Shown: in pieces, positions 19,411 through 63,931 of the stretch
How the letters are laid out: every line of letters starts with the position of its first letter
How positions within the stretch are numbered: position 1 is the stretch's first letter
IMG/VR virus record: IMGVR_UViG_3300044673_000278
Location: 187,694 to 251,693 of that record
Direction: 5' to 3' (one strand)
DNA length: 64,000 bases
Source: a virus
Taxonomy: Duplodnaviria; Heunggongvirae; Uroviricota; Caudoviricetes
Position numbers and translations under genes: made by a program
Notes under the pieces: generated by a model
Database searches by the model: none
What the model saw: only the letters and a program-made list of their open reading frames with translations
What the model was told of the DNA's origin: nothing

Positions 19411-20695
19411 CACACTGTGCCTAGCACCTTGGACACACACATATCTCAGTCCACAAACGGAGCGTAGAATGTGCTGTGCCAGTCGCGAGCCAGCACAGAA
19501 TTTTGAACAGTACATTGATACATCTGCTGGCACCGGGCGGTATATTCCGCTGACATTGGAACAGCACTGGAATTCAGAGCACATGCGAAGTGTACGCCGA
19601 AGAATGATGGCCGGAGAAACCTTGCCTGAGTGCGATGTGTGCAACAACAAACTGTTAAATACCTCAGTATATCGAGATTACTTTGGTCACCTCTTTGGAC
19701 ACAAACTAGATGAAGTCTACGCAACAACTACCGCTGACGGTTATACAACCATGGAGCCTGTGTCCTGGGACTATAGGTTCAGTAATCTCTGCAACTTTAA
19801 ATGTAGAACTTGCGGGGACATGCTCAGTTCTGCGTGGGAAAGCGAAGAGAAAACTCATGACATGGTTAATTGGGCAAATCCTAGTAATAACTGGATGCGC
19901 AGTGATGTTAGGCAGCAAATATCACAGTTTCAGGATACACAGATTGAGCAAGAATTCTCTGATGCTGTGGAACAGCATCGAGTAGAAGAAGTCTACTGGG
20001 TAGGCGGCGAACCCTTGATGTATGAACAACATTGGCGTTATATGAAACGCATTGTTGAATTAGGAGACGGAGGACGACTATATGCCAGGTACAACACTAA
20101 TCTCAGCAGGATTAGTTATCGCGGCTGTGACTTATATCGTGATCTGCTGGTACATGTACGCGACTGGCAAATTTGCGCCAGTATTGACGGAACAGGAACA
20201 ATCGGAGAGTACATACGTACTGGTCTGGACTATGGGGTTTTTCTAAAGAACTTCGAAGCTGGTGTGGCCGTACAAAAAAATCGTCGACAGATGAGATTGG
20301 ATTTTACGTTGACGCTGCCGGGCATGTTTGAAGTCAATGCAATACAACAGCTTGCTCGCACATACGATGTAGAGCTATTGGCCAAAGTGATCTTTAGTTT
20401 TACCCCAGATATTGCAATGAGTCCATTGGCTTTGCCCAGGCAGCTATTAGACGACTGGGTTGATGAGTTGGTACCCGAATGTACATCAGGGGCCATGCGC
20501 GATGTTCTACTACAGTTAAAGAATCGTCCTACGTTTGAACAACAATGGCCCGATCAATATCGTGCAGGGCTTGCAAAAGGCAAAGCTCGTGTGTTAAAAT
20601 TAGAAAGCATACGCACACAGTCAATAACCATGGGGGAAATATTGGCTCAGCGTCCAGAAGTATTGAAATGGTGGAACGAAATTGAACCCAATTGA
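19385..20695 (+). CDS. Radical SAM enzyme, paralog 5
   Basis: CNFKCRTCGD and GGEPL motifs. N-terminal CLAPWTHTYLSPQTERRMCC...CDVCNNK. Confidence 0.7.
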   Translation: MNKFMQKPDTLCLAPWTHTYLSPQTERRMCCASREPAQNFEQYIDTSAGTGRYIPLTLEQHWNSEHMRSVRRRMMAGETLPECDVCNNKLLNTSVYRDYFGHLFGHKLDEVYATTTADGYTTMEPVSWDYRFSNLCNFKCRTCGDMLSSAWESEEKTHDMVNWANPSNNWMRSDVRQQISQFQDTQIEQEFSDAVEQHRVEEVYWVGGEPLMYEQHWRYMKRIVELGDGGRLYARYNTNLSRISYRGCDLYRDLLVHVRDWQICASIDGTGTIGEYIRTGLDYGVFLKNFEAGVAVQKNRRQMRLDFTLTLPGMFEVNAIQQLARTYDVELLAKVIFSFTPDIAMSPLALPRQLLDDWVDELVPECTSGAMRDVLLQLKNRPTFEQQWPDQYRAGLAKGKARVLKLESIRTQSITMGEILAQRPEVLKWWNEIEPN

Positions 20696-21728
20696 AATGG
20701 ATCTCCGATCGGAGTCGGGCAATATATTAACTGTTTACATAGATGTAGCACACAACAGTCTAAGCCGCAAATGGGTCACAGCACTAAAGGAGTTAGTGGA
20801 AAATGATTACCATTTGGAAAAGAATTATTGCTGGTTTGGCTGGACTCAAAGCCGACGCAACGCCGAATACCTATGCGGATCCATTAACAGTAGTATCAAT
20901 GCTATTAATAGAGCTAACCTGGGTTATCGCATTGATTGCCCTAGTTACACAGTTTCTAACACAATAAAAGATGACTTGGATATCAATCATGAGCGCATGA
21001 ATTGGTTGCATCGATATTTTGAAGATCTGCAGGGTGTGTCGGGTAGAATGAGTCCCTACTACGAAGCAGCTGATGCAGAAACACGCTGGCATATACGCCA
21101 ACTCAATTTGTTGTGCCATGAATACGAAAGCCTGGTGCTGAGCATGCGCAAAGACGTACAGGCACCTGAGTGGAAAAGACCCAGTCAGCTGATGTGCTGG
21201 TTGCATGCACCGCGCTTTGAGTTGGATGAAGAAGACCACGAACTGTTTGGTATTGAAACCATTAATCGCAGCCTGGGTGGTGTGTATGTGGGGGTAAACA
21301 AAGCAGTAGGTAAACATCACTGGGAAGTATTCAATGATGAAGGTCGAGACAGTCGCATTGATGAACTAGTGACTACCACACTCAAAACTCAAACTGAAGC
21401 AGCAGGGGACTTTGACATTGAATGGGCTCGTGATCCGGGTGCATATCATTGGCAACAAGTAAAATTGCGAGAATTTCGCCAATGGCTGCTGGACAACGGT
21501 TTTGATCCCGACGACAAAAGTCTAACCATTGGACACCCCAAGGTTGCGCAGGTAGATCTTTTACGCAGTTTTGGCACAGAAGACTACCAACAAATCTGGA
21601 GCTTGTTGGCACAACACCTAGATGTATATAAAATCCGTGTAGACGGCTGCGAAGCTACATACAACTATAACTGGAGTGATCCAGATTATATGCAGCAGCA
21701 AGTGGCTGCAATCAAACAAGGAAAATAA
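20682..21728 (+). CDS. Hypothetical protein (348 aa)
   Basis: ORF with overlapping start inside the island. No recognisable motif. Confidence 0.45.
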   Translation: MNPIEMDLRSESGNILTVYIDVAHNSLSRKWVTALKELVENDYHLEKNYCWFGWTQSRRNAEYLCGSINSSINAINRANLGYRIDCPSYTVSNTIKDDLDINHERMNWLHRYFEDLQGVSGRMSPYYEAADAETRWHIRQLNLLCHEYESLVLSMRKDVQAPEWKRPSQLMCWLHAPRFELDEEDHELFGIETINRSLGGVYVGVNKAVGKHHWEVFNDEGRDSRIDELVTTTLKTQTEAAGDFDIEWARDPGAYHWQQVKLREFRQWLLDNGFDPDDKSLTIGHPKVAQVDLLRSFGTEDYQQIWSLLAQHLDVYKIRVDGCEATYNYNWSDPDYMQQQVAAIKQGK

Positions 21729-21827
21729 CATGGGCTGGATTCGAAGAATGATTGAGCGAATTCGTTTAGAAATTCGCTATCGTAAAAAACTCAAAGAACT
21801 GCGCAAGCGTGATCCATTCATTTACAA

Positions 21828-23306
21828 ATGAACATTCTTGGTATTTCAGCAGGATTTCATGATGCTGCCATTGCTGTACTCAGTGACTCTGGCGAAATAA
21901 GATTTGCCAGCCACAGCGAACGCTATAGCAAAAACAAGCATGACACAGACCTATGTGATGCTATCCTAGATGACATTGATCAGTACACCATAGGGCAGAT
22001 TGCATACTACGAACGTCCTTGGGCACGACAGTTGCGACAGCTATGGGCTGGTCAAGGCGTAGACTGGAATCAACTCACTGTGAAAGAAATTGTGCGCCAG
22101 CAAACTGGCTCAAGATTTCGCGGTGTAAAAGCTCGCGGATACAATCATCATCTATGCCATGCAGCCGCAGGGTTTCAAACATCGCCTTATAATCGTGCCA
22201 CAGTTGTTGTAATCGATGCCATTGGCGAATGGGACACAATAACAATATGGGGAGCAGAATATGATTCAAAAGGTCGTGCGCAGTATAAAAAACTTTGGAG
22301 TCGCGGTTACCCGCATTCAATTGGACTCTTCTACAGTGCAGCTACTAGCCGCGTTGGCCTACGCCCACTAGACGAAGAATACATACTCATGGGCATGGCC
22401 GCCTATGGTGAACGTGGATTCGGCAGTCTCATGCGTCAAGACCTTGTGGCTGATGCTTGGGAAATTGAGTTCAAGCAAAACCTGCACATGGGACTGGAGC
22501 AGAAGTATCTCAGTTATGTGGCGGACATGGACATTGCCGCTGGCGCACAAGATTTAGCCGAAGATCTCATCATGAATGTCATGCGTAGAGCTCGAGCATT
22601 TGGCTGGAGCAACAACCTTGTGTACATGGGCGGTGTTGCACTGAATTGCAGTGCCAATAGGAGGTTAGGTGAGTGTTTTGATAACATATGGATTATGCCT
22701 TGTCCTGGTGATGCTGGCTCTAGCCTGGGCGCCGCCGCACTGGCTTACGGTAGTAGGATTAATTGGCACGATGCTTTTCTGGGCCATGATATTAGAGGCC
22801 CTTACCCTGTTAATGCCATTCTGGACGAGCTTGTGTCTAATCGTATCGTTGGTGTTGCTAGTGGCCGTGCTGAGTTCGGTCCGCGAGCGTTAGGCAACAG
22901 AAGTTTATTAGCGGACCCTAGAGGTCCAGAAATCAAGGATCAAGTAAATGCAATCAAACGTAGACAAAAATTCCGACCCTTTGCCCCAGTTATTTTGGAG
23001 GAACTGGTTGATCATTACTTTGACATGCCTCGCAATTGGGATCGTAGTAGGTATATGCAAGTCGTCGCTACTTGTAGGCGTCCTGACTTATTTCCTGCTA
23101 TCGTTCACGCTGACGGGACTAGTCGTGTACAGACTGTGCCAAAAGATGGATCGGGAATACGAGAACTGCTTGAAAAATGGTATGTAATGACTGACTGCCC
23201 CATGCTGCTGAACACCAGCTTGAACATACGCGGTGAGCCTATGGTCAATGATCGATTAGACGCAGATAGATTTGAAAAGTTATACGGTGTACGAGTATGC
23301 AGTTAA
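21828..23306 (+). CDS. Carbamoyltransferase (NodU/CmcH/TobZ family)
   Basis: N-terminal MNILGISAGFHDAAIAVL is the Kae1/YgjD-like ASKHA motif of O-carbamoyltransferases. 492 aa. Confidence 0.7.
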   Translation: MNILGISAGFHDAAIAVLSDSGEIRFASHSERYSKNKHDTDLCDAILDDIDQYTIGQIAYYERPWARQLRQLWAGQGVDWNQLTVKEIVRQQTGSRFRGVKARGYNHHLCHAAAGFQTSPYNRATVVVIDAIGEWDTITIWGAEYDSKGRAQYKKLWSRGYPHSIGLFYSAATSRVGLRPLDEEYILMGMAAYGERGFGSLMRQDLVADAWEIEFKQNLHMGLEQKYLSYVADMDIAAGAQDLAEDLIMNVMRRARAFGWSNNLVYMGGVALNCSANRRLGECFDNIWIMPCPGDAGSSLGAAALAYGSRINWHDAFLGHDIRGPYPVNAILDELVSNRIVGVASGRAEFGPRALGNRSLLADPRGPEIKDQVNAIKRRQKFRPFAPVILEELVDHYFDMPRNWDRSRYMQVVATCRRPDLFPAIVHADGTSRVQTVPKDGSGIRELLEKWYVMTDCPMLLNTSLNIRGEPMVNDRLDADRFEKLYGVRVCS

Positions 23307-37295: not shown

Positions 37296-37477
37296 TCCTT
37301 GCCTAGTTGTTTTTCAGCTTCGGTTTGGCGTTCCCAAAGGATACTTTCGTACCCTTTGTAGAACAGCCATGTGTCGCACACAGCCAGCACACTTAGAAAG
37401 ATCCAAAAACCAAGCCACGCCATGTCACTTCTTCCGTTCTTCTTCGTAGTATGCATGAGCACCCCAGGGCGGAACAA
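37283..37477 (-). CDS. Hypothetical small membrane protein
   Basis: 64 aa with an N-terminal transmembrane segment. Confidence 0.35.
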   Translation of the reverse strand: MFRPGVLMHTTKKNGRSDMAWLGFWIFLSVLAVCDTWLFYKGYESILWERQTEAEKQLGKECQK

Positions 37478-38702
37478 TGGTAGTGGTACCGTGCAGGATC
37501 CAAGTCACGTCACAGTATTCTTCATCGCCCCACGAACCAAACGGGTAGCCGTCTGTGAACACAACCAGCCGGCGCGGCTGAATGTCTTCGTCCTTGAGGT
37601 AACGATAGATAGCAGTGAAGTCAGTGCCACCACCGCCAGCAGGTTCATAGTCAATGATACTATCCAGGTTGTCGGAATTGTACTGTGCAGGATTGTAAGT
37701 TTCAGTGTCGAAGCTGAACACATGAATCTTGTATGCAGGGAACGAATCCATGATGCCTTGGATTTCGCCTAGGAAGTCCTTGAGCATTTTCTCGCCGATT
37801 GAGCCCGAAGTGTCAATTGCAATAGCAATGTCGATCATTTCGTCGTTCTTCATGCCGGGCATCACAGCGTCCATGTGCCAGCCACGACGGCTTGCTCGCA
37901 TCCAAGTGAAGTCCGACTTGATGGTGCTTTCAAGGTTCATGCGTAGCAGTTCGCGCCAGTTCATCTGGGGCTCGGTGAGCTCCTTGATCAGTCGCATAAC
38001 GCCTGCAGGAATGTTGCCAGCACCGTCCACAGTTTGAGCCGCAGCCAGCATGGCTTCTTTGATCTCGTCCTTGATCTGTTGACGTTCAGCATCGGAAAGC
38101 TTGGGGCGGCCTTTACCTTCTTTGTCGCCGTCGCCATCACCTTCGCTGTCACCTTCTCCGTCAAGGTGCTCGTCGATCATCTTGTCCAGCAGATCAGAGA
38201 TGTTGATCTTTTGTGCGTTTTCAAACAGTTTGTCGTAGATCTCTTCGGAGCTCATGCCGTCGTACTTGGAATCGTGCAGGCAAGGCACAGTGGTGATCTT
38301 TTCGCCCACACGGTGCTTGATCAAGTCTGCGTTGACAGCAAAGTCGTTGGCAATGTTGAACAGTTGCGGATCACGATCGCCACGGCGGCCAAAGTGATCG
38401 TAAACACAGTGCAGAACCTCGTGACCAAACAGGAATTCGATCTCCTTGGGACGAAGCATCTGAATGAAACGGCTGTTGTAGTAGAAGTGGCGGCCGTCTG
38501 TGGCGGCAGTGCTACACCATTCATCAGCATTGACCAGCTTGAGTCGGGTAGCAAGGTTGCCAAAGAAGCTGGCACGAAGCAGGAGGCCCACGCGGGCAGT
38601 GATCAGTTTTTCGCGAACTTCGCGGTCAATCTTGGGGTCAGTGGGACCCAACAGGTTAGCAAATTTTTGTTTGTCGTCTTTGGTCTGGGTAGTTGCAGTC
38701 AT
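37425..38702 (-). CDS. VWA-domain protein with an N-terminal HExxH metallopeptidase-like domain (DUF2201/CoxE-like), partner of the MoxR ATPase
   Basis: HEVLHCVYDHF is an HExxH motif. DIAIAIDTSGSIG is a VWA MIDAS motif (DxSGS). Start re-set to the ATG at 38702 (AAAGGA SD) because promoter P1 (-10 at 38727-38732) lies inside the ORF-track 5' extension. Confidence 0.65.
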   Translation of the reverse strand: MTATTQTKDDKQKFANLLGPTDPKIDREVREKLITARVGLLLRASFFGNLATRLKLVNADEWCSTAATDGRHFYYNSRFIQMLRPKEIEFLFGHEVLHCVYDHFGRRGDRDPQLFNIANDFAVNADLIKHRVGEKITTVPCLHDSKYDGMSSEEIYDKLFENAQKINISDLLDKMIDEHLDGEGDSEGDGDGDKEGKGRPKLSDAERQQIKDEIKEAMLAAAQTVDGAGNIPAGVMRLIKELTEPQMNWRELLRMNLESTIKSDFTWMRASRRGWHMDAVMPGMKNDEMIDIAIAIDTSGSIGEKMLKDFLGEIQGIMDSFPAYKIHVFSFDTETYNPAQYNSDNLDSIIDYEPAGGGGTDFTAIYRYLKDEDIQPRRLVVFTDGYPFGSWGDEEYCDVTWILHGTTTIVPPWGAHAYYEEERKK

Positions 38703-38726
38703 GTCAGTCCTTTGTGTCAATGTGTT

Positions 38727-38755
38727 ATTATAGCACAATGCGAATTATTGATCAA
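38727..38755 (-). promoter_or_regulatory. Sigma70-type promoter P1: TTGATC-17-TATAAT with upstream TG
   Basis: Minus-strand reading ttgatcaataattcgcattgtgcTATAAT. Confidence 0.6.
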
Positions 38756-39126
38756 ATCCAGCGTCCTGCATTGTCAATTTCATCACGGGTGAATTGTCCG
38801 CCTGAACGGTCGGGATTTTGTTGCCAATGTGCCCAAGTAGAAAACTCTTTACCTTTCACTTCACACTCAACAAGATCATCCAAGATGCGGTTGAGTTCGT
38901 CAATGTTGATTTTCAGGAACTCAATGGTTGCCCTATTAGCAACTATCTCGCTGGTTGAGTTGAACCAGCCTTGTTCGTTTCGCTCGATCTTCTCTGCCAG
39001 CATCTTTTCCTTGCCGGCGATTGTGTTCTTCAGGTTAGTGATTACGGTTTGCAGGTTCATATCAAACTCCTTTGGCGGCAAGATAGCCCAACAATGCCAA
39101 TGCGGCAAAGTTAAACACAATAGCAA
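38752..39126 (-). CDS. Hypothetical protein
   Basis: 124 aa. Confidence 0.45.
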   Translation of the reverse strand: MLLCLTLPHWHCWAILPPKEFDMNLQTVITNLKNTIAGKEKMLAEKIERNEQGWFNSTSEIVANRATIEFLKINIDELNRILDDLVECEVKGKEFSTWAHWQQNPDRSGGQFTRDEIDNAGRWI

Positions 39127-39147
39127 CGAAACACCAAAATAACGCTG

Positions 39148-39393
39148 TCATTCTTCAATTCCAAAATGTTGTTTGACCTTGCCTAAATCAGGAATGCCAT
39201 TGTCGTTAGCACTCTCGTTCATAATGAAGTCGTACATTTCTTCCAACAATACCTCGGCGAACTTTGCGTCCACACTGTCTTGTAGTTCACGATTGTGACG
39301 AATGTTTTCCCAGAAATATTCCTTTTTACACATATTCTGTTTGGCAACAAAATCAAAAGCCTGTTTTTGAAGTTCTCGAATTCGTTCGTTCAT
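39148..39393 (-). CDS. Hypothetical small protein
   Basis: 81 aa. Confidence 0.45.
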   Translation of the reverse strand: MNERIRELQKQAFDFVAKQNMCKKEYFWENIRHNRELQDSVDAKFAEVLLEEMYDFIMNESANDNGIPDLGKVKQHFGIEE

Positions 39394-39602
39394 ACCAACT
39401 CCAGTTCTTCAATATGCAGGGCACGGCGATCAATACCGTATTCACCAATCATAAACTCGACGTCTGCTTCTGCAGCCTCGCGGCTTTGAAACGCTCGGTC
39501 ACAATTCTCCCATTGAGTGCCATCGCCAGTGTCAGACATGTCAATTTGCACAATGTAGATTTTCATCTCAGGCCTTTCGAACGGCAAACAGTTGGAACTC
39601 AA
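39390..39602 (-). CDS. Hypothetical small acidic protein
   Basis: 70 aa, overlapping start and stop. Confidence 0.45.
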   Translation of the reverse strand: MSSNCLPFERPEMKIYIVQIDMSDTGDGTQWENCDRAFQSREAAEADVEFMIGEYGIDRRALHIEELELV

Positions 39603-39858
39603 AAGTCAGCAAGGTCACAGCCCAGCCGCGGATTTCGGGATTGGGGCTCTGGCGGAAGCCAACCATCTTGGTGTTGCGAACCATGTCAAAATTCCAACCG
39701 ATTGCATCCAGAAACAAGGAGCCGGCAACCAGCACAACAAAGAAGGGCCAGAACACACTACCAATGATCACAGCCTGACAATCTTGATGCGGAGTGCGAA
39801 CTGCGGCCAGGGCTTGCAGAACAAAAATGATTGCCACGTAACCGATTGCGTATTCCAT
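39568..39858 (-). CDS. Small membrane protein (3 TM helices)
   Basis: 96 aa, hydrophobic throughout. Confidence 0.45.
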   Translation of the reverse strand: MEYAIGYVAIIFVLQALAAVRTPHQDCQAVIIGSVFWPFFVVLVAGSLFLDAIGWNFDMVRNTKMVGFRQSPNPEIRGWAVTLLTFEFQLFAVRKA

Positions 39859-39888
39859 TCAGTGCTCCTTTTTGCTGTCTATGTGTAT

Positions 39889-39917
39889 ATTATAGCAGTT
39901 CGGGTATTTTTGAGCAA
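39889..39917 (-). promoter_or_regulatory. Sigma70-type promoter P2: TTGCTC-17-TATAAT
   Basis: Minus strand: ttgctcaaaaatacccgaactgcTATAAT. Upstream of the gene that starts at 39858. Confidence 0.6.
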
Positions 39918-39979
39918 CCAAAATTGTAGTACTAAAAAAGTATACATTTTTGGTGATCAGAACGTTTTACAGCGTTTTT

Positions 39980-40288
39980 TCAGATGATTCGTGTGTCCGC
40001 GCCTGCTGGATTGTTTAAGTAGCGCAACAAAAACCAACTCTGTGTACTTTCGTTGTAGAAATCCAGGTGTATTTGTTCTTCTGCATAGTGGCGCACCCTC
40101 TCGCCTGATCGATCAAACGGAATCCACTCAGTGTGTTTGCGTACTGTGAATCCTAGTTCGCGTTTCAGCACAAAACTGAGGTTGATTGTTGGACCATGTT
40201 CAGCCCGAATACGCCGCCAGATTGCATCCCAGTCACTGGCGTTTTTAAATATCACTAGATTCTTCTTTACAATCACCTTTGAGGACAT
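39980..40288 (-). CDS. Hypothetical protein
   Basis: 102 aa. Confidence 0.45.
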   Translation of the reverse strand: MSSKVIVKKNLVIFKNASDWDAIWRRIRAEHGPTINLSFVLKRELGFTVRKHTEWIPFDRSGERVRHYAEEQIHLDFYNESTQSWFLLRYLNNPAGADTRII

Positions 40289-40586
40289 TCCAAAATCTCC
40301 AAGTTTTGTCGTACAGATCTACGTCCTCTCGGTGACGTATGAAAATAGTTATCTTGGTTCCGCCTTCAAAATCCCAGCGATCTCCGCGAGTGCCAAGTGT
40401 AGCCCTGCACCATTTTACACGGGCCAAGGCATCAACATCGTGTGCCTTGAAGTCAAATCTGTGTGTCATTCCGCGCATGGATGCACCATTTGAAACCAGC
40501 TGAGTTCTTGATCTCCTTTGAGATAAATGCGGTAGTTTTTGTATTGCACTGCATAAGCCCAATGCGGATTGATTTGGTCGTCCCAT
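40245..40586 (-). CDS. Hypothetical protein
   Basis: 113 aa. Confidence 0.4.
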   Translation of the reverse strand: MGRPNQSALGLCSAIQKLPHLSQRRSRTQLVSNGASMRGMTHRFDFKAHDVDALARVKWCRATLGTRGDRWDFEGGTKITIFIRHREDVDLYDKTWRFWNVLKGDCKEESSDI

Positions 40587-40801
40587 GGCTCAAATCGTCG
40601 ATTGAGAATCCGTGCCATGTCGTTCATAGTTTCAACATCCTGACTCCAACCCCAGGTTTGATTCATCCAGCGCCTGGCTCGATCAAAGTCCAGCACGCCA
40701 GTGCCGGTCCATTCGCTTCGTGTGAACTCTAAACACCAGCGAAAGTTTTTGCTCCAGGCATAACGATTGTCTAACTTAACTACCTTGTATTGCATAAGCA
40801 A
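40466..40801 (-). CDS. Hypothetical protein
   Basis: 111 aa. The frame overlaps 40245-40586, so one of the two may be spurious. Confidence 0.35.
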   Translation of the reverse strand: MLMQYKVVKLDNRYAWSKNFRWCLEFTRSEWTGTGVLDFDRARRWMNQTWGWSQDVETMNDMARILNRRFEPWDDQINPHWAYAVQYKNYRIYLKGDQELSWFQMVHPCAE

Positions 40802-40844
40802 AAAGGGGCAGTGTTGCCACTGCCCCCGTCCTCACCACCACAGT

Positions 40845-41930
40845 TTAGGCGCTAGCCTGGAGGATGTACTTACCAAAACGCTGGTGGAACTCGTCGAAGT
40901 TCTTGAGCTTGGTAGGCTGGAACGGCAGGTTGTAAGTGGTCAGTGCAATACGAGCACCCATAACAACCAGCTCGGTCTCAAAGTTCTTCATCATGTAGCC
41001 GAAGAAGTTGTCTGCCATCTCGTGGAACTTCTTGTCTTCGATCTTGTTCTCAATCGCAGACTTGAGTTCGTAGCACATGGAAATCACCAGCGAGTACATC
41101 GCCGACACTTCCTTGACGTTGAGGTCCTTGACCTTGCCGTTGAGGATATCAATCGGAGCAGGCATACGACCTGCAATCTTGCGGTGAGCCATGAACTTCA
41201 CAGCAAGGCCTTCGCCCACAGTACCTGCAATTAGGTTCATTGCAGTGTCGTCGTCCAGGCTTTCGTCCTCCAACAGCTGGCTAACAAAGTGCCACGAACG
41301 CGGAGTAGCGAATGCACGGCTGGAGCTCTTGGCATCAAAGTCGTAGAGGTCCTGCTTGGCAAAGCTCAGGTAACCAACCACGTCCTTGTGCTCATTGTGT
41401 TGCACAGCCCACTCTTGCCAGCTAGCAAAGTCCACCTTCATTTCCTGGTGCAGGAAGCGGTTTGCCAGCGGAGTAGGCATGCGGAAAGTAACACCTTTGT
41501 CGCTTTCACGGTTACCTGCGGCAACGATAACCACGTTGTCAGGCAGCACATACTTGCCAATTCGGCGGTTCAGGATCAGCTGGTAGGCAGCCGATTGCAC
41601 TGAGGCAGGGGCCGAGTTCATTTCGTCCAGGAACAGGACCACAACAGGATACTGAGCGGCAGTGTCAGCATCGGGCAGATCGATGGGAGGGGCCCAGTCC
41701 ATCTTGCCATTTTCTTTGTTGAAATACGGAATACCACGAATGTCAGTGGGCTCCATCTGACCTAGTCGCAGGTCATACATGATACCGCCCAGGTCTTGGG
41801 TAATACCTTCAACCAGTTCGGACTTGCCGATACCAGGAGGGCCCCACAGGAAGATAGGACGCTTGACTTTGAATGCAGTCAGAATAGACTTGCGGGCTTG
41901 GACGGAAGTGACGGTGCGGGTATCGCTCAT
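40845..41930 (-). CDS. MoxR/CobS-like AAA+ ATPase
   Basis: Walker A RPIFLWGPPGIGKSE, a Walker B-like VVLFLDEMN, and a length of 361 aa typical of CobS/MoxR. Confidence 0.7.
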   Translation of the reverse strand: MSDTRTVTSVQARKSILTAFKVKRPIFLWGPPGIGKSELVEGITQDLGGIMYDLRLGQMEPTDIRGIPYFNKENGKMDWAPPIDLPDADTAAQYPVVVLFLDEMNSAPASVQSAAYQLILNRRIGKYVLPDNVVIVAAGNRESDKGVTFRMPTPLANRFLHQEMKVDFASWQEWAVQHNEHKDVVGYLSFAKQDLYDFDAKSSSRAFATPRSWHFVSQLLEDESLDDDTAMNLIAGTVGEGLAVKFMAHRKIAGRMPAPIDILNGKVKDLNVKEVSAMYSLVISMCYELKSAIENKIEDKKFHEMADNFFGYMMKNFETELVVMGARIALTTYNLPFQPTKLKNFDEFHQRFGKYILQASA

Positions 41931-54838: not shown

Positions 54839-55001
54839 TTCTTTGGTGCAGGAACTTTCTTCAGCAGTTCACGTTTGATCAAACAATCACGTTGAGTGCC
54901 TTCGCGAAATACTCGCAAGTATTCCACACCGTCTATGCGTTGCACATCCTGAAGATTTGTGCAATAAAAACGTTCACGGTTTCGCATGTTTTCAAAATAC
55001 A
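54839..55001 (-). CDS. Small hypothetical protein (53 aa), not in the ORF track
   Basis: AAGGAG SD 7 nt upstream of the ATG at 55001. Protein: MKTVYFENMRNRERFYCTNLQDVQRIDGVEYLRVFREGTQRDCLIKRELLKKVPAPKK. Confidence 0.45.
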
Positions 55002-55037
55002 CTGTTTTCATAGATGTGCTCCTTGTTGAATTTGAGT

Positions 55038-55190
55038 AAATGCTTGTAGGATTCGAACCTACCCCTGCGTCCGCCTTCTCCGCTTACTCAGTCTGCAAAC
55101 CTTTAATCGGATACTACCTTCTGCTGTGCTAGCCAGTACACCTAACAACCTGTCCGAGTTCATTGCAGTGCCCTCGGAGCAGTCTCAAAA
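55038..55190 (-). ncRNA. Conserved ~150-nt structured element, copy A, ending in a tRNA-like T-arm
   Basis: Shares long conserved blocks (CACTGCAATG, TAGCACAGCAGAAGGTAGTA, GTTTGCAGACTgAGTAAGCGGaGAAGGCGGACGCAGGG, TTCGAATCC) with copy B at 56745-56900. Confidence 0.45.
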
Positions 55191-55193
55191 CTT

Positions 55194-55541
55194 TTACCAG
55201 TAGTAGAGATGTGGCTTGCGACCCACGCTGGGCACGTCAGCATCCACAAGATCTTCTACTCGATATTTTACAATTTGTCTCTCCCACTCTCGGCCACGAG
55301 TACGTTGTGGCTGATTCATAAACTCACGCACCCACCACATGGGAGTGGGCATGCCGTGATATTCTTGGTAGTGACGTTTTTTCTTGGTCTTTACTCCGGG
55401 CTTCTGAATGTAGCACCAGAAGTTATACCAGTACTGAAACTCAGTGCTCCACTTCTGATATGGAACTCGTTCCATACCATAATCCCAGCGAGACTCGGGA
55501 TATCTGAGTTCCCAAGGTTGATCTTTATACGATCGTGACAT
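55194..55541 (-). CDS. Hypothetical Trp/Tyr-rich protein
   Basis: 115 aa. Confidence 0.5.
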   Translation of the reverse strand: MSRSYKDQPWELRYPESRWDYGMERVPYQKWSTEFQYWYNFWCYIQKPGVKTKKKRHYQEYHGMPTPMWWVREFMNQPQRTRGREWERQIVKYRVEDLVDADVPSVGRKPHLYYW

Positions 55542-55597
55542 AGTTTTCTCCTTAGTATCACAATCGCATAATCATCTCCTTGTAAAAAATTATTTAG

Positions 55598-55689
55598 TGG
55601 TGGAAGCGGTGAGATTCGAACTCACGGGACCTGTTAAGGACCGACGGTTTTCAAGACCGTTGCAATAAACCGGGCTCTGCCACGCTTCC
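55598..55689 (-). tRNA. tRNA-Ser (TGA), class II
   Basis: Acceptor GGAAGCG/CGCTTCC. Anticodon loop CTTGAAA. Long variable arm. Confidence 0.65.
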
Positions 55690-55696
55690 GTTGTCT

Positions 55697-55774
55697 TGGA
55701 GTCTCGGGTAGGATTCAAACCTACGAATCAAACGCTTTGCAGGCGCAGCCATTAAATCACTCTGGTACCGAGAC
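55697..55774 (-). tRNA. tRNA-Cys (GCA)
   Basis: Anticodon loop CTGCAAA. U73 discriminator. Confidence 0.55.
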
Positions 55775-55781
55775 ATGAAAT

Positions 55782-55858
55782 TGGTCGGAGTACAAGGATT
55801 CGAACCTTGGACCTCTTGCTCCCAAAGCAAGCGCACTACCAGGCTGTGCTACACTCCG
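55782..55858 (-). tRNA. tRNA-Pro (TGG)
   Basis: Anticodon stem CTTGC/GCAAG with loop TTTGGGA. Confidence 0.6.
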
Positions 55859-55865
55859 AATAAAC

Positions 55866-55940
55866 TGGTACCTGGACACGGTTTCGAACCGCGGACCCTC
55901 TCCGTGTAAAGGAGACGCTCTACCCCTGAGCTATCCAGGC
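55866..55940 (-). tRNA. tRNA-Val (TAC)
   Basis: Anticodon loop TTTACAC. T-loop TTCGAAA. Confidence 0.6.
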
Positions 55941-55946
55941 AATGTT

Positions 55947-56020
55947 TGGAGCGGCGTGCGAGAATCGAACTCGCGACTTTAGCTTGGAAGGCTAAGGTAA
56001 TACCATTTTACGAACGCCGC
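55947..56020 (-). tRNA. tRNA-Gly (TCC)
   Basis: Anticodon loop CTTCCAA. U73. Confidence 0.6.
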
Positions 56021-56218
56021 TTAAATACACTATGCAACAACGTGACTTCTATGCTGCCAACGGTTGGGTGCAAATACACCTCTGCGTCAACGACACAGCA
56101 GACACCTGCTACATCTACGTCAATGATATTTACAATCAAAAACTGACCATGCGTTTTTTCACGGACACCACGGAAGCGATGTTGTGGATCAACAGCATAG
56201 ACACATTGTGAATATCAC

Positions 56219-56295
56219 TGGTGCCGCCACATGGATTTGAACCATGGACCCCCGCCTTATCAAGACGGTGCTCTAACCAACTGAGCTATGGAGGC
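56219..56295 (-). tRNA. tRNA-Ile (GAT)
   Basis: Anticodon loop TTGATAA. T-loop TTCAAAT. Confidence 0.6.
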
Positions 56296-56436
56296 AAATT
56301 TTTTCAACTACTTTTTAAAGAACAAACTGCATTGTAACAGCAATATCTTTGTTTGTCAACTGGCCGGTCCTGCAGGAATCGAACCCACATCGCCAAGTTC
56401 GAAGCATGGCATTCTATCCGTTGAAATAAAGGCCCT

Positions 56437-56511
56437 TGGTGGTTGTAGTTGGTATCGATCCAACCTCCTGGGCTTATGAAGCCCGTGCGCATCCGTCTAC
56501 GCCATACAACC
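56437..56511 (-). tRNA. tRNA-Met or Ile2 (CAT)
   Basis: Anticodon loop TTCATAA. T-loop variant ATCGATA. Confidence 0.55.
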
Positions 56512-56521
56512 AAAACTTCTT

Positions 56522-56596
56522 TGGGGTGACCACTGGGAATCGAACCCAGACTAAGAGAATCACAATCTCTGTTGCTAACCGTTACAACATGGCCAC
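56522..56596 (-). tRNA. tRNA-His (GTG)
   Basis: Anticodon loop TTGTGAT. C73. Confidence 0.6.
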
Positions 56597-56744
56597 ACCA
56601 AAGAAGTTTACCATATAAAAACACTCCCAATATCGGTTCAATGCTGGCACAAAGAACCTTTCGCCTCTGCCAGGAGACCGAAGAGATCGCCCGCTTCAAT
56701 TGCGGGATCTGTCCGTCACGAATGTTTTTATATGGTGACAAACA

Positions 56745-56900
56745 AATGCCTTGGGATTCGAACCCAACCCTGCGTCCGCCTTCGCCGCTTACTAAGTCTG
56801 CAAACTTTTCGTCGGGTACTACCTTCTGCTGTGCTACCAACACACCATGCAGCCTGTCACAAGCCATTGCAGTGTCTTGTGAGCAGTCTTGTACCATATA
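56745..56900 (-). ncRNA. Conserved ~150-nt structured element, copy B, ending in a tRNA-like T-arm
   Basis: Homologous to copy A. T-arm TTGGG-TTCGAAT-CCCAA. Confidence 0.45.
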
Positions 56901-57186
56901 GAAACACACTAACGAACCTGGCTGTGGGGTTCGACCCCACTGTTTCCCGTAGCACCAGCGGTACTGCTACGATACCGGTTAATGTGTTTGCATATGGCGG
57001 TACATGAGTTAACCTAAAACTAGTCTAATATCGCGGCCGCAATATTTCGTCTATGTCTTAGGATATACACGTTGGTACCTTGCGTACCTCACGTACCATA
57101 TGTAAACACACTAAAGCTCTCTTATCTGCATCACTAGACATTTTGTCGTAGCGTCGGTCATTGTACCCGATTAATGTGTTTGCATA

Positions 57187-57260
57187 TGGTAGGGGTGTTC
57201 GGGAACGATCCGAATTTTACCGGTTAAAAGCCGGTTACTTCACCTTAAAGTTTCACCCCC
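57187..57260 (-). tRNA. tRNA-Lys (TTT)
   Basis: Acceptor GGGGGTG/CACCCCT. Anticodon loop CTTTTAA. T-loop variant ATCGTTC. Confidence 0.55.
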
Positions 57261-57424: not shown

Positions 57425-58186
57425 TCATATAGTTCCTTGTTTAATTCTTCCTCTAACCCAACCGATAGGTATACTATCAGTAGAGTTTTGTCTTTTGTTA
57501 CTAACTCCGTCGTTAATCCAAATTGTGCCACGATTATTGCCATAATTTAGATTTGCTTTGTCTTCGCTAGTTCGTTTTGATACAGTTTCTTTGTATGCCT
57601 GTATCCTTCTTTCTTTATCACCAAACCCGACACCTTTATATAAAGCAGACATTTTAGCAGATTGTTTTTCTTTCCTGCTGTTAAGTTCTTCTTCAGGCTT
57701 GTTGATCCAAGAATTGCATTTTTGTTTGTAGACTTCCTTTTCCTCGGGCGTTTTGTTGGCCCACGGATTAGAGTGTTTTCTGTGTTGCTCCTTCTTCTCT
57801 TCAGGCAACGTTTTCCAATATTCTTTTTTAGAGTTTTTATAATCTTCTCTTAACTGGACAAATTCATCAACAGTTAATTGGCGACGGTCTACTCTGTTGG
57901 TAGTCATTAAATGAAACGCACATGACATTTGCTGATTACCATATGCTTTCCACAATAGGTAATGTGCTTCGTAATGTTGGGCGGTAGTCAAGTGTACCAC
58001 ATTTGATTTTTCATTTGAGCCTCCCATACTACGTGGCAAAATATGATGTAGTTCGGTTTTTAAGTTGCTGTCACTAACGGCACTCGCTATTAGCGTCATA
58101 TACAAATCTAAAAACTCTTGATTTTTCGGTGTAGGTAATAAGTCTTTCATATACTTATTTAGTCCACACGCACTATTCTGCACCAT
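57425..58186 (-). CDS. HNH homing-endonuclease-like protein
   Basis: HHILPRSMGGSNEKSNVVHLTTAQHYEAH is an HNH motif. 253 aa, inside the tRNA array. Confidence 0.6.
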   Translation of the reverse strand: MVQNSACGLNKYMKDLLPTPKNQEFLDLYMTLIASAVSDSNLKTELHHILPRSMGGSNEKSNVVHLTTAQHYEAHYLLWKAYGNQQMSCAFHLMTTNRVDRRQLTVDEFVQLREDYKNSKKEYWKTLPEEKKEQHRKHSNPWANKTPEEKEVYKQKCNSWINKPEEELNSRKEKQSAKMSALYKGVGFGDKERRIQAYKETVSKRTSEDKANLNYGNNRGTIWINDGVSNKRQNSTDSIPIGWVRGRIKQGTI

Positions 58187-58460: not shown

Positions 58461-58536
58461 TGGTGCTGCCTCCAGGTTACGATCCTGGTTCCTCGGATTT
58501 TCAGTCCGTCGCTATGACCACATCAGCTAAAGCAGC
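58461..58536 (-). tRNA. tRNA-Phe (GAA), second diverged copy
   Basis: Anticodon loop CTGAAAA. T-loop variant ATCGTAA. About 80% identical to the 54761 copy. Confidence 0.55.
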
Positions 58537-59117
58537 ATTATTTCTTGATATTCTTCTTTTTCAACTACCGCAATATTTTTATCAGGGTAAGTTTGAAGAA
58601 CTATCTTCATTTTTTCTTTATCATCACCCCACCAAAAACCTTTTACTTCAACATACATATCGTAGTCAGGAAGATAAAAGTCAGGAGTGTACGAACGAAT
58701 TTTTCCGTTCATCTCATACTTTAATGTATCTTTGTTTGTTTTGAGCTTAATCCATTGTATATTCAGCTGTTCGAACTTAGCAGCAATATCGCGCTCCCAA
58801 GTACCTTGAACTTTTTGGCCAGCAATTTCGTACCACTTGGCACGACCGCCTTTATTGTTAATAGAAAGCTTTTCACTAATTTTACGTTTAGACTCAGCGG
58901 AATGCTTTTTTCCAGCAAAGGTGCCAGGCAGTCCTTTGTTCCAAGCAGTTGGTAACTCAGATCCTTGCTTTTTTGCAAGTATATACTGATTGCTACCTTG
59001 TTTTCCGGTCATGCCGTTTTTGTAAACCCTGTTTAGATTGCTAGGGCAACATCGCTGATGATTACGTAGAGAGTTTTCGCTTTTACACTCTTTTTGACAA
59101 AATTTACAAATAAACAT
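58527..59117 (-). CDS. PD-(D/E)xK nuclease-like homing endonuclease with an N-terminal Zn finger
   Basis: CKFCQKEC...CC zinc finger. YTPDFYLPDYDMYVEVKG is a PD...(D/E)xK motif. AGGAGA SD. Confidence 0.55.
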   Translation of the reverse strand: MFICKFCQKECKSENSLRNHQRCCPSNLNRVYKNGMTGKQGSNQYILAKKQGSELPTAWNKGLPGTFAGKKHSAESKRKISEKLSINNKGGRAKWYEIAGQKVQGTWERDIAAKFEQLNIQWIKLKTNKDTLKYEMNGKIRSYTPDFYLPDYDMYVEVKGFWWGDDKEKMKIVLQTYPDKNIAVVEKEEYQEIMLL

Positions 59118-59182: not shown

Positions 59183-59260
59183 TGGTCTCCATGGTACGAT
59201 TCGAACGTACAGCCTCCTGACTCCAGATCAGGCCGTCTACCAGATTGACATTACACAGAG
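59183..59260 (-). tRNA. tRNA with an atypical anticodon loop UCUGGAG (UGG-like, C33)
   Basis: Good acceptor (CTCTGTG/CATGGAG) and T-arm (GTACG-TTCGAAT-CGTAC). The anticodon loop lacks U33. Confidence 0.4.
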
Positions 59261-59517: not shown

Positions 59518-59934
59518 TTAGTAACTCTTTCCTTCTGCGTACCTTTGCCGTCTAGTATGTCTGCCGTTGCCTTTGTTCCTATTTTTATAGGTACTTGTTT
59601 GACTATGACAGTTGGGGCAAATTAAACACAAATTTTCTTTACTATTGTTTTCGCTATTGCCATCTTTATGCTCTAGCTCTAATACAATTTCTTTGTCGTT
59701 CCAAGTTTCGATATCACATACTGAGCATTTGTTGCCATAGTTTTCAGCAAGGTATCTTTTTAATCTTGCCTTGCCGGGAGATTTGTTCTCCCAGTTTGCG
59801 ATAGCATCTCTATAGTTCTGCTCTTGCTGACACGCAATTGAACAAAACAAGTTATTTTTAGATAACCTAAATCCTGATTCTTTATTACATACTGTACAAT
59901 TATATGTGTACGGATGAATTTTTGGCTTTCCCAT
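59518..59934 (-). CDS. HNH endonuclease
   Basis: ELEHKDGNSENNSKENLCLICPNCH is an HNH motif, preceded by a CxxC zinc finger. 138 aa. Confidence 0.6.
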   Translation of the reverse strand: MGKPKIHPYTYNCTVCNKESGFRLSKNNLFCSIACQQEQNYRDAIANWENKSPGKARLKRYLAENYGNKCSVCDIETWNDKEIVLELEHKDGNSENNSKENLCLICPNCHSQTSTYKNRNKGNGRHTRRQRYAEGKSY

Positions 59935-61279: not shown

Positions 61280-61536
61280 CCACTAAATGTTTTTCAGTGC
61301 TGTATTTATACCTCGCGACGAAAAACTACGAATTGGATGCGGGTGACAGATTCGAACTGCCGATGCACCGAGCTTATGAGACTGGTGTGGTGGCCACCCT
61401 ACCCGCTGTAATTATTTATCTATTCTGAAACACACTATCTGCGGGAATCTCACCCTATGTCAGCTTAATGTGTTTTAGAATAGTGGAGGACTGAGAATAC
61501 ATCTCTCCCAACAACACCTCGAGCATTATTACCAGC

Positions 61537-62175
61537 CTTGCGAGCCAGCTTTCTCTCGACTTCCACTAGATCCATATTGCTATGTAATCTAGTCTGCTGT
61601 CAGCATCGCCGTTTTTAAAGACAGGCAGTAGTCTTGTCGCCATATGCTATTCTACGCTTTCTATCCCGTTGACCTTGCGAGCCATTCAAGTGCGCTAACA
61701 CCTTACGAAACTTCTTGCATAAACAGATTTCACCTTGCGAGTTACGTCTGACTTGATTACCTTGCGGCTCAAGTATTAGATGCTTTTCACATATGACCGA
61801 GTCAGTCTTTGCGTTTTATATAAGGTTGGATTTGAACCAACAGCCTATTCCTTAAAAGGGAACTGCACTACCATTGTGCTACTTAACCTACTGCGATGTG
61901 CTGACTCAGTTGCTGCATACTCTTTTGGAATACACAATACAACACACCACGTTCCTTTGGTCTTGCGGACTACTCAGACGTCTTTTGCGATCAGTGTCGG
62001 GTCTCGGCTTTCGCATACCTCCACTTACCACTCAAACTGCATACGAGCCCTTGAGTGCAACCCCTCGGACAAATACGCTACCCTTTCTCATACCAATTAA
62101 CTGGACTGGTTTTGTTGTGAGGTCAGCACCACCTGTTACTCTCTAATGACTTGCGTTACCCTTGCAGGCGCTTGA
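61537..62175. repeat. Five dispersed copies of a CCTTGCGAG-like motif in an ORF-free region (iteron-like)
   Basis: Copies at about 61540, 61671, 61733, 61760 and 62159, with consensus (A/T)(A/C)CCTTGCGAG(C/T). Confidence 0.4.
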
Positions 62176-62802: not shown

Positions 62803-62894
62803 TGGTAGGAGTGGAGAGGATCGAACTCTCTCAAGAACGCTAATCTGGCGCTAAAAGGTTTATAAAACCTCCCTGACTACCAAGTCTCACTCCC
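62803..62894 (-). tRNA. Class-II (long variable arm) tRNA-like gene with an unusual anticodon arm (UAU-like)
   Basis: Acceptor GGGAGTG/CACTCCT, A73, CCA encoded. T-arm GAGAG-TTCGATC-CTCTC. Anticodon arm AGGTTT-TAT-AAACCT. Confidence 0.4.
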
Positions 62895-62992: not shown

Positions 62993-63067
62993 TGGTACAC
63001 CGTATGGGTTTCGATCCCATCTCACTAGTTTGAAGGACTAGCGGCCACCCCAGCTGCCTCACGGTGT
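62993..63067 (-). tRNA. tRNA-Glu (TTC), tentative
   Basis: Acceptor ACACCGT/ACGGTGT. Anticodon loop CCTTCAA. T-loop variant ATCGAAA. Overlaps the 3' end of the endonuclease ORF. Confidence 0.45.
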
Positions 63068-63642
63068 GTATATTGATTATGTCCCGACACAACTCTGTTA
63101 CCTTTTAACGAGCACGAGCGAGAACAATATACTTTGGTATACTTTGATGATTTATCCTTGCCAAAGATGTTACCGCAGCAAGCACATGTATACTCAAATT
63201 TTGGTTTGTATTCATCGTAAAGTGACTTATAGTTTTTAGTATAAGTGGACTTCACATAGTTGAATTCTTCTTGTAAATCATCGGCTCTTAATACCACAAC
63301 TTCGTATCCGTTGTTGTTTGCTATTAAAGTCTTTGCATCAACTTTGGCTTGATCTTCAAAGCCCTTTATTTCAATAATCTTGTTGTTCTGAACAAAGTCG
63401 GGAAAATATTTTTTTCCGTTGAACTCTAAGAATCCTTCAAATCGATTAAAGTCTAGGCCATGATCAAGTTGGTATATGACCCAGCACAACTCATATGTTG
63501 ATCCGCAATAGATACCTTTGTAGTATCCTGTTTTTGCTCTGCCTGAACCGGGACGGTAACCTCCTTTTGAAGCTTTACCGCCACAAGTTCTAGAGCAATA
63601 TTTGTTTTTAGCATCTTTACCACAAACAATACATGAGTTCAT
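63025..63642 (-). CDS. Homing-endonuclease-like protein (Zn finger plus PD-(D/E)xK motif)
   Basis: Start set to MNSCIVCGK (ATG at 63642, AAGGA SD). FPDFVQNNKIIEIKG is a PD-(D/E)xK-like motif. Its 3' end overlaps tRNA-Glu. Confidence 0.5.
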   Translation of the reverse strand: MNSCIVCGKDAKNKYCSRTCGGKASKGGYRPGSGRAKTGYYKGIYCGSTYELCWVIYQLDHGLDFNRFEGFLEFNGKKYFPDFVQNNKIIEIKGFEDQAKVDAKTLIANNNGYEVVVLRADDLQEEFNYVKSTYTKNYKSLYDEYKPKFEYTCACCGNIFGKDKSSKYTKVYCSRSCSLKGNRVVSGHNQYTHREAAGVAASPSN

Positions 63643-63931
63643 ATTAAGTTCCTTTGTATTATTTATGACGACCTTGATTTTTATTGACCTCACCAGAAGT
63701 CTAATGCGACATGTTGAATTTGAGAGTAGTGCCACCCTGTTATAGGCACCATTCACCCGATTTAACAAGTCCGGACGGGATTCGGTACGTCACTTGGGAT
63801 TCATCCAGCGTGGTAACCATGCTACACCGATCTTCCGATCGGCCGGGAGTCGAACCCGCTTGCCTTCTATTACTCAGTACCTTCGAAGAATACTGCATAA
63901 CGTGACTTCACTTGCTGACACTCTCAAAACT

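Follow-up and report, generated by a model that had tools for sequence, protein, structure and literature searches.

Phage transfer RNA (tRNA) arrays are usually read as lists of decoders. In phage T4, the tRNA cluster, which also holds the homing endonuclease gene segB, includes on the same strand the ~139-nt species 1 RNA (rnaC), which terminates with a canonical T arm (CCGGG-UUCGAAU-CCCGG) and an acceptor-like strand after it, and folds into a closing stem with expanded arms (z -4.6). The T4 record annotates rnaC only as a small stable RNA, and we know of no function assigned to it to date. A bipartite adaptor logic has been proposed for YrlA, a non-chargeable non-coding RNA (ncRNA) that couples tRNA-like T and D arms to another module (PMC4201824; bioRxiv 10.1101/312249), and the RNAs GOLLD, ROOL and OLE are reported to form homo-oligomeric complexes (PMC12286853). 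Here we report a structured RNA element present twice in a 64,000-nt stretch of a Caudoviricetes genome (positions 187,694 to 251,693 of IMG/VR record IMGVR_UViG_3300044673_000278; “the window” hereafter denotes this whole stretch), within an array of 33 tRNA genes that all lie on the minus strand (53.6-63.1 kb). The element appears to occupy a tRNA slot and to present a tRNA-like elbow, while its predicted fold would neither decode nor be chargeable. It very probably represents a previously uncatalogued family of structured tRNA-like ncRNAs. Its closest analogue is the T4 species 1 RNA, and it can be seen as a modern, covariation-supported counterpart of the T4 “species 1/2” stable RNAs.

The two window copies (hereafter copies A and B) are alike along their whole length. 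A preliminary description of the window had proposed that two regions align over ~150 nt, share several sequence blocks and end in a canonical T arm, all of which was borne out: the alignment is real with the minus strand as the RNA-like one, every named block is found in both copies, and the T arm is GUAGG-UUCGAAU-CCUAC in copy A and UUGGG-UUCGAAU-CCCAA in copy B. End-to-end identity is 79.6% (mean column identity 82% once the flanks are counted in), and one 20-mer (TAGCACAGCAGAAGGTAGTA) and one 26-mer (AGTAAGCGGNGAAGGCGGACGCAGGG) each occur exactly twice in the window, where shuffles expect 0.01 and 0.00, respectively. A search with our covariance model (R1, cmsearch) found no third copy in the window. 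Copies on other contigs are 90-93% identical to copies A and B, which are only ~80% identical to each other; each window copy is thus nearer to copies from elsewhere than to its neighbor, and at the sequence level the two look like old paralogues that have both been kept.

Broadly speaking, the element is spread over contigs of uncultured large phages. Exact-pattern scans of IMG/VR and a metagenome collection, with chance matches and duplicates removed, brought the family to 51 distinct sequences, 49 of them outside the window, on public viral and metagenome contigs (100-140 bits). Complete copies scored 111.6-139.8 bits with R1, and a diverged copy (L261) 99.9 bits; one further pattern, GAAGGCGGACGCNGG, was discarded as it returned >119 loci, nearly all of them chance GC-rich matches. 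All homologues outside the window come from uncultured viral or metagenomic contigs, with one element copy per locus in the fetched flanks. The contigs carrying the element reach 250-356 kb, and a virion protein encoded in the window matches jumbo phages (Sinorhizobium Phosso, Agrobacterium Atu_ph07, PA5oct and Rak2-like phages). A clade of giant phages keeps this element, sometimes as two old paralogous copies. It was not found in 50,697 GenBank phage records (blastn), and a pattern scan of 185,579 GTDB species-representative genomes gave chance matches only. Our literature searches found no description of the element, and a 2023 catalogue from IMG/VR (10,006 candidates; 8,495 unnamed candidate structured RNAs) could include it (PMC10690425).

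Evidence for a structured RNA comes from covariation among 48 distinct full-length sequences, including the two window copies (L261 was added later). A plain MAFFT alignment with RNAalifold recovered the terminal stem (P1), the 5′ hairpin (H1), the tip stem of a long arm (H3) and the T stem, and a column-pair scan pointed to more helices. RNAalifold missed the long-arm helices because of misalignment, and we instead divided each sequence at its invariant blocks, which served as anchors, realigned the resulting segments with N padding (alignment A3) and counted pairs. On this alignment 91.7% of cells form a standard pair, vs. 73.5 +/- 0.6% after shuffling (reached in 0/500 shuffles) and 33-44% when the partners are slid, and the covariation score is 0.488, vs. 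0.164 and <= 0.09, respectively. Pairs changed on both sides number 29/43 (23.8 shuffled, 6-14 slid), and such changes affect every helix. The covariation analysis suggested in the preliminary description therefore supports one fold across the 48 sequences, whose conserved G.U pairs establish that the minus strand is the RNA strand. Fifty-one alignment columns are invariant although the sequences diverge to 64-69% identity, which rules out the possibility, also raised beforehand, that the copies are decayed duplicates of a neighboring tRNA and lack any conserved structure.

The supported fold is that of an expanded cloverleaf whose two ends are joined. P1 (5 bp) exists in three covarying versions and is followed by one unpaired A and by H1, which has a CUG-C-UC/GACAG base, four covarying pairs, two mostly purine-purine positions and two covarying closing pairs below a CUGCAA hexaloop that is invariant in 50/50 sequences. 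In H1, 8/13 pairs change on both sides (e.g., CGAG/CUCG in copy A becomes ACAA/UUGU in copy B), and L261 alters the base from C-G to A-U with the helix kept. A dinucleotide GY separates H1 from an acceptor-like helix. The preliminary description had noted that no acceptor pairing could be found, but a 4-bp helix of the form UG(Y)N / N′(R)CA does exist, its 3′ strand adjoining the T stem and the 5-bp leader/trailer stem P1 lying outside it. It covaries, with C-G, U.G and U-A at one position and U-A, G-C and A-U at the other (pairs 44/160 and 45/159, permutation p 0.007 and 0.0004). Then follow two nucleotides at tRNA positions 8-9, a D stem that reads GUGU/GCAC, or AUGU/GCAU in four of the sequences, and closes a loop of 7-8 nt with an invariant GG, one nucleotide at tRNA position 26, the long arm, a variable loop of 3-4 nt (mostly AGGG), a covarying T stem with loop UUCGAAU (UUCGAUU in one subgroup), and finally the acceptor-like 3′ strand, UUU, a purine and the P1 3′ strand. 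Real tRNAs of the window align to R1 positions 44-160, confirming that the 3′ two-thirds of the model are tRNA-shaped.

The long arm is irregular, 58-66 nt in length, with a base of two pairs (GC/GC or CC/GG). Its first internal loop is purine-rich, with AGUA opposite GAA (a Watson-Crick GC helix instead in one subgroup), which we take to be the consensus of a bulged-G (sarcin-ricin or loop E) motif, and its second has GAAA opposite AGUAA. The helix Px (3-6 bp) comes in the compensatory versions CCG/CGG, CUAAC/GUUAG, CUAGAC/GUCUAG, UACACA/UGUGUA, GCAG/UUGC and CUAG/CUAG, and H3 is a 3-bp covarying stem below an invariant hexaloop, UUGCAG; among family members, two-sided changes occur in each of Py, Px and H3. 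Several other pairings were considered and rejected. The 5′ GACUGCU is not an acceptor strand for the 3′ AGCAUUU, as the 5′ strand is invariant and the 3′ one varies (leaving C-A and U-C mismatches), UG(Y)N covarying in its place. Similarly, CUGCUC does not pair with the GA(C)GCAG before the T arm, a block whose GC covaries with the start of the long arm (GC to CG, pair 67/136). A CAU/AUG extension of the long arm holds in one subgroup only, fails in others and competes with the D stem, and a hammerhead-like CUGAGUA found in copy A lacks conservation among its relatives. The minimum free energy folds of the single copies were set aside as inconsistent and at shuffle level.

Despite this tRNA-like core, the element matches no described family. 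The Infernal scan of Rfam suggested in the preliminary description was run (Rfam 15), and over the window the element matched nothing at gathering thresholds; nor did any family match it at E <= 10 (54.8-57.4 kb) or at E <= 1 (13 homologous loci), the sole overlaps being noise (RAGATH-33, 15 bits; transfer-messenger RNA (tmRNA), 10.9 bits on the T arm). It has the 5-bp T stem with a UUCRANY-type loop expected of a canonical tRNA, and a 3-4 bp D stem with a GG loop 2 nt after the acceptor strand. After position 26, however, it offers only two standard pairs in an arm that ends in a hexaloop, and only four acceptor pairs are supported, the next three being G.U, G.U and Y-U. Neighboring tRNAs encode CCA whereas the element does not, its ends being paired in P1. 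Without a 5-bp anticodon stem, a 7-nt loop or a CCA, it is no decoding tRNA, in line with the earlier view that the copies are not simple tRNAs; ARAGORN and RF00005 both leave it unrecognized (RF00005 even at E <= 10).

Four more elaborate identities had been offered in advance, namely an intron-containing tRNA, a permuted tRNA, a tmRNA-like fragment or a novel tRNA-like small RNA family, and of these only the last fits the data, through the covariation in 48 sequences and the lack of a Rfam match. An intron-containing tRNA is rejected, as ARAGORN with introns (-i) is negative in both copies at default settings and the would-be anticodon stem (27-31/39-43) has only 2/5 standard pairs. With the threshold lowered, ARAGORN does report a tRNA, in copy B alone, whose 53-nt intron lies at a non-standard position. 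A group I intron would be much longer than this insert. A permuted tRNA is rejected as well, as the parts are collinear (acceptor 5′ strand, D arm, long arm, T arm, acceptor 3′ strand). The tmRNA candidate, likewise rejected, had been based on the motifs GUAGUACC and GGACGC, which turn out to be parts of the conserved AGUA/GAA internal loops. ARAGORN run with -m returns no call, the Rfam tmRNA models give no more than 10.9-12.4 bits, confined to the T arm (gathering score 47), and the element lacks the G3:U70 pair (the 3:70 equivalent being Y-U) and a conserved tag frame, with no shared frame and common stop seen by eye in copies A and B. One homologous locus (L143) even carries a genuine permuted beta-type tmRNA (5117-5468 (-), 141-145 bits) ~1 kb from its element, and this Betaproteobacteria-type tmRNA hints at a betaproteobacterial host. 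That the element is an unusual functional tRNA, whether with an intron, spliced or recoding, or works on ribosomes in tmRNA-like fashion is thus extremely unlikely: the canonical T arm, D arm and variable loop, the array setting and the low-threshold call in copy B speak for it, but default thresholds yield no call, copy A has none even at the lowered one, the would-be anticodon stem has only two of five pairs with no conserved 7-nt loop, the ends are paired without a CCA, and the tRNA and tmRNA models fail.

How the element relates to the systems named at the outset follows from this fold. It shares with T4 rnaC the setting in a tRNA cluster, the 3′-terminal T arm with its acceptor-like strand and an expanded cloverleaf-like fold, but the two are not homologous: in rnaC, R1 finds a counterpart for the 17-nt T arm and nothing else (13.9 bits), and rnaC has its long arm at the D-arm position and a short hairpin at the anticodon position, and lacks the 5′ hairpin, the CUGCAA/UUGCAG loop pair and the AGUA/GAA-flanked helix. 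With YrlA it has in common that tRNA-like T and D arms are linked to a further module in a non-chargeable molecule, yet the YrlA model (RF02553) does not match it, giving 21-25 bits on real tRNAs only (gathering score 69). The ends of YrlA pair on the anticodon side, forming the Ro-binding stem, and its acceptor is capped, whereas the ends of our element pair on the acceptor side; no Ro/Rsr gene was noticed, although no search was aimed at one. The tRNA-like domain of tmRNA resembles it in having a T arm, an acceptor helix and a long helix in place of the anticodon stem, with no anticodon, but the element has a true D stem and has neither CCA, G3:U70, tag reading frame nor pseudoknots. Canonical tRNAs (RF00005) share its genomic slot and the order and spacing of the acceptor strands, positions 8-9, D arm, position 26, variable loop and T arm, and differ in their anticodon arm (replaced here by 58-66 nt), in the number of acceptor pairs (four here), and in lacking the extra 5′ hairpin and terminal stem.

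The genomic context is constant. All 48 scanned elements (48/48) are embedded in tRNA arrays, and the tRNAs of each array share the strand of the element without exception (ARAGORN-based script). Two classes can be told apart by their flanks. In class 2, the type of copy A, P1 is UUGAG/CUCAA, and for most elements 5-9 nt separate the start from the CCA of the preceding tRNA, with 11-16 nt between the end and the following tRNA, a spacing that places the element in a tRNA slot. Copy A itself sits between an open reading frame (ORF) of 115 aa (55194-55541, -; no Pfam or PHROG match), whose stop codon is 6 nt upstream of it, and a small ORF (~54840-55010, -) with the ribosome-binding site (RBS) AAGGAG, and these flanks recur in three homologous loci (L136, L167, L169). 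This tRNA-like spacing, together with the tight fit of copy A between a stop codon and, ~10 nt on, the RBS and ATG of the next ORF, would also suit a cis-acting processing or punctuation module that steers cuts by RNase P, RNase Z or RNase E and has no function in trans, comparable to mitochondrial tRNA punctuation or to the MALAT1 mascRNA. A pairing of leader (AAACUUCUUU) and trailer (AAGAAGUUU) is seen around the window's tRNA-His as well (56512-56607, -), which with its flanks scores 18.8 bits with R1, and such pairing may be a general processing feature of the array. We nevertheless regard a pure processing module as unlikely, as an acceptor/T minihelix would suffice for it while ~100 more nucleotides are conserved here, including two invariant hexaloops and two internal loops, as two diverged paralogues are both maintained, and as the acceptor end is closed rather than offered as a cleavage site.

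In class 1, the type of copy B, P1 is ACAAG/UUUGU (UAUAG/CUAUA in two sequences), and a conserved motif, TAGTGTGTTTCTATATGGTAC, stands upstream of all homologues, with an inverted copy downstream in 20/22 cases (two homologues have the 5′ motif only); class 2 copies lack these inverted repeats. A long (~18-20 bp) flanking stem formed by the repeats was considered as part of the RNA and rejected, the repeats being conserved in sequence without covariation. When class 1 5′ and 3′ flanks were swapped between sequences, the duplex energy was nearly that of native pairs, and this result, together with the two homologues that carry the 5′ motif only, led us to take the motif for a signal that acts at the DNA level or resembles a promoter, and not for a stem of the RNA. 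Could the whole element then be a DNA-level entity, such as a mobile cassette, a homing-endonuclease target, an attachment site with inverted repeats or a decaying duplicate of a tRNA pseudogene? The inverted motif copies around copy B and 20/22 class 1 homologues would agree with this, as would the four homing, HNH or endonuclease-I-like ORFs dispersed among the window's tRNA genes (57425-58186, 58527-59117, 59518-59934 and 63025-63768, all -), which recall segB in the T4 cluster. A truncated copy in another contig (L189, 1414-1579 (+)) points the same way: all that it retains is the 5′ hairpin, the 5′ strand of the acceptor and the beginning of the D arm, joined via ~30 nt to a normal tRNA-Arg(ACG), and is evidence of rearrangement within arrays. 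However, compensatory changes keep RNA pairing in every helix, G.U pairs are strand-specific, class 2 copies do without the inverted repeats, and a pseudogene would not hold 51 invariant columns at such divergence, so that this possibility appears very unlikely to us.

Around copy B, the sequence GTTTNNATATGG occurs in six exact copies (56611-57189) of strictly alternating orientation, and looks like a promoter or cassette boundary. Neighboring pairs are each able to close a stable structure, among them an unassigned ~100-nt unit (56997-57096, z -6.2), the spacer 56622-56735 (z -5.0) and the interval 56890-56990 (z -2.9), the last of which holds a T-arm-like hairpin, GUGGGGUCGAACCCCAC.

The two hexaloops, CUGCAA on H1 and UUGCAG at the tip of the long arm, are perfectly complementary over 6 nt, for which the chance is ~1 in 4096 for two given hexamers. 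Such loops could act as an intramolecular lock or as an intermolecular contact. One possibility is that they pair head to tail to make a self-assembling RNA (dimers, rings or cages), as reported for GOLLD, ROOL and OLE (PMC12286853). GOLLD is moreover found in the same arrays at 7/~25 loci: the window has a full-length GOLLD RNA (61488-61950 (-), Rfam 198.9 bits) that carries within it a tRNA-Lys(ttt) (61817-61888), and six other loci have one near the element in the fetched flanks (L199, L203, L172, L152, L164 and L003). GOLLD is nonetheless a separate locus, the element having no RF02032 match, and the window GOLLD contains neither hexamer. The loops are also invariant, hence without covariation between them, and their complementarity fits an intramolecular lock, or a shared UGCA protein-binding motif, equally well. 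On balance self-assembly seems quite unlikely.

A related but broader idea is that the phage makes a tRNA-shaped building block or sponge in which the two hexaloops are functional partners, either for oligomer assembly or for capture of the tRNA-Cys anticodon. CUGCAA(U) is similar to the tRNA-Cys(GCA) anticodon loop, that of the window's own tRNA-Cys gene included, and UUGCAG contains a UGC codon; on such a reading the former would copy the anticodon loop and the latter would present the codon with extended complementarity. In the assembly outcome, the loops would pair between molecules to give RNA-only oligomers as for GOLLD and ROOL, while in the capture outcome the tip loop would bind the tRNA-Cys anticodon in the style of a T-box specifier, with the 5′ hairpin competing as a built-in mimic. 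We consider this improbable, but if true, hexaloop assembly or tRNA-Cys capture would be a new viral use of tRNA mimicry.

Overall, the explanation that we prefer, and that we hold to be probable though far from certain, is that of an RNA family occupying tRNA slots as a non-chargeable tRNA mimic. Under this model, the RNA would fill tRNA slots in the arrays of a clade of uncultured jumbo phages and be transcribed together with the tRNAs, the class 2 type being freed by the processing that releases its tRNA neighbors and the class 1 type being started at its own conserved upstream motif, and it would accumulate as a closed ~155-nt species. Its tRNA-like core would comprise the 4-bp acceptor-like helix stacked on the T arm, the D arm with its GG and the 4-nt variable loop, with the acceptor end closed into a three-way junction by the terminal stem and the 5′ hairpin. 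As a rod stands in place of the anticodon arm and the acceptor end is closed, the RNA is predicted to be unable to decode or be charged. The elbow of T loop and D loop and the acceptor/T stack could instead be shown to a host or phage factor that recognizes tRNA shape, while the long arm, internal loops and hexaloops may bind a second partner or lock and rigidify the fold. For a stable mimic of this kind the likeliest role would be that of a decoy or adaptor, in the manner of Y-RNA-like tRNA mimics, a suggestion that we put forward tentatively and by analogy. We give it less than even odds but rank it first, ahead of a processing module, a self-assembling RNA, a DNA-level element and, last, a functional tRNA or tmRNA, with part of the probability left unassigned.

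Several observations weigh against this tRNA-mimic model or the strength of its support. The evidence is computational throughout, what is said of function is drawn from analogy only, and no neighboring protein gene is conserved in a way that would suggest a partner. As the phages behind the 48 aligned sequences are related, the shuffle statistics overstate independence, and the search patterns required some of the invariant blocks, an ascertainment bias (the CUGCAA loop was part of most patterns, whereas the UUGCAG loop was not). The folding energy of single sequences is no better than that of shuffles (z -0.40 and -0.26 for the two copies). Px pairs at 100% by construction because its columns were placed by a best-pairing search in a narrow range, although the variety of its complementary pairs is not a product of column placement. 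Finally, the hexaloops, the H1 base and the top of the acceptor-like helix are invariant or vary only in L261, and covariation therefore cannot speak to the possible loop-loop contact or to the predicted three-way junction.

If correct, the tRNA-mimic model would offer a compact test case for viral use of tRNA-recognizing machinery, such as RNase P, modification enzymes and tRNA-targeting defense nucleases, and would add a defined partner to GOLLD-containing tRNA islands. The covariance model is usable at once for annotating metagenomic phages. The positions of both copies, their parts and the adjoining class 1 motif are given in Table 1.

Table 1. Location of the two element copies, their structural parts and the flanking motif within the window.
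Feature	Positions	Strand	Details
Copy A, whole element (P1 5′ strand to P1 3′ strand)	55032..55188	-	Class 2 flanks UUGAG/CUCAA; R1 cmsearch 140.9 bits, E 1.5e-41, model positions 1-171
Copy A, H1 5′ hairpin	55150..55182	-	CUG-C-UC + 8 layers; hexaloop CUGCAA 55163-55168
Copy A, acceptor-like 5′ strand, positions 8-9 and D arm	55126..55147	-	UGUU 55144-55147 pairs with AGCA 55041-44; D arm GUGU-ACUGGCUA-GCAC
Copy A, long arm in place of anticodon arm	55067..55124	-	Py, AGUA/GAA loop, Px (UCCG/CGGA), GAAA/AGUAA loop, H3, tip UUGCAG 55093-55098
Copy A, 3′ part	55037..55066	-	Variable loop AGGG, T arm, acceptor-like 3′ strand AGCA, UUU, A
Copy B, whole element	56738..56892	-	Class 1 flanks ACAAG/UUUGU; R1 cmsearch 136.8 bits, E 2.6e-40
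Copy B, H1 5′ hairpin	56854..56886	-	Hexaloop CUGCAA 56867-56872; from sub-feature parse
Copy B, acceptor-like 5′ strand, positions 8-9 and D arm	56831..56851	-	UGCA 56848-56851 pairs with GGCA 56747-50; D arm GUGU-GUUGGUA-GCAC
Copy B, long arm in place of anticodon arm	56772..56829	-	Px CCG/CGG; tip hexaloop UUGCAG 56798-56803
Copy B, 3′ part	56743..56771	-	Variable loop AGGG, T arm, acceptor-like 3′ strand GGCA, UUU, G
Motif M (GTTTCTATATGG within TAGTGTGTTTCTATATGGTAC)	56894..56905	-	Just upstream of copy B; promoter-like; inverted copy 56724-56735; six exact copies of alternating orientation in 56611-57189

A few further observations concern tRNA-like genes and the rest of the window. In two other loci (L259 4424-4586 (+) and L260 1897-2059 (-)), we noted a tRNA-Gly(tcc)-like gene, unrelated to the element and the only tRNA on a 32-kb viral contig. 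Its 7-bp acceptor is perfect, its anticodon arm is lengthened by a 44-nt insertion, and a 9-bp hairpin lies upstream; this layout, in which a 5′ hairpin precedes a tRNA whose anticodon arm is expanded, resembles that of the element. Within the window's array, a 92-nt tRNA-Ile(tat) called by ARAGORN and unreported by Rfam (62803-62894, -) and a weak tRNA seen by Rfam (31.5 bits) and missed by ARAGORN (59187-59259, -) may be further atypical tRNA-like genes. Elsewhere in the window, two groups of auxiliary genes are unusual for phages: a cluster of four radical SAM ORFs (one with SPASM) and a carbamoyltransferase at 9983-23306, and a MoxR-type AAA ATPase with a VWA/metallopeptidase protein at 37425-41930.

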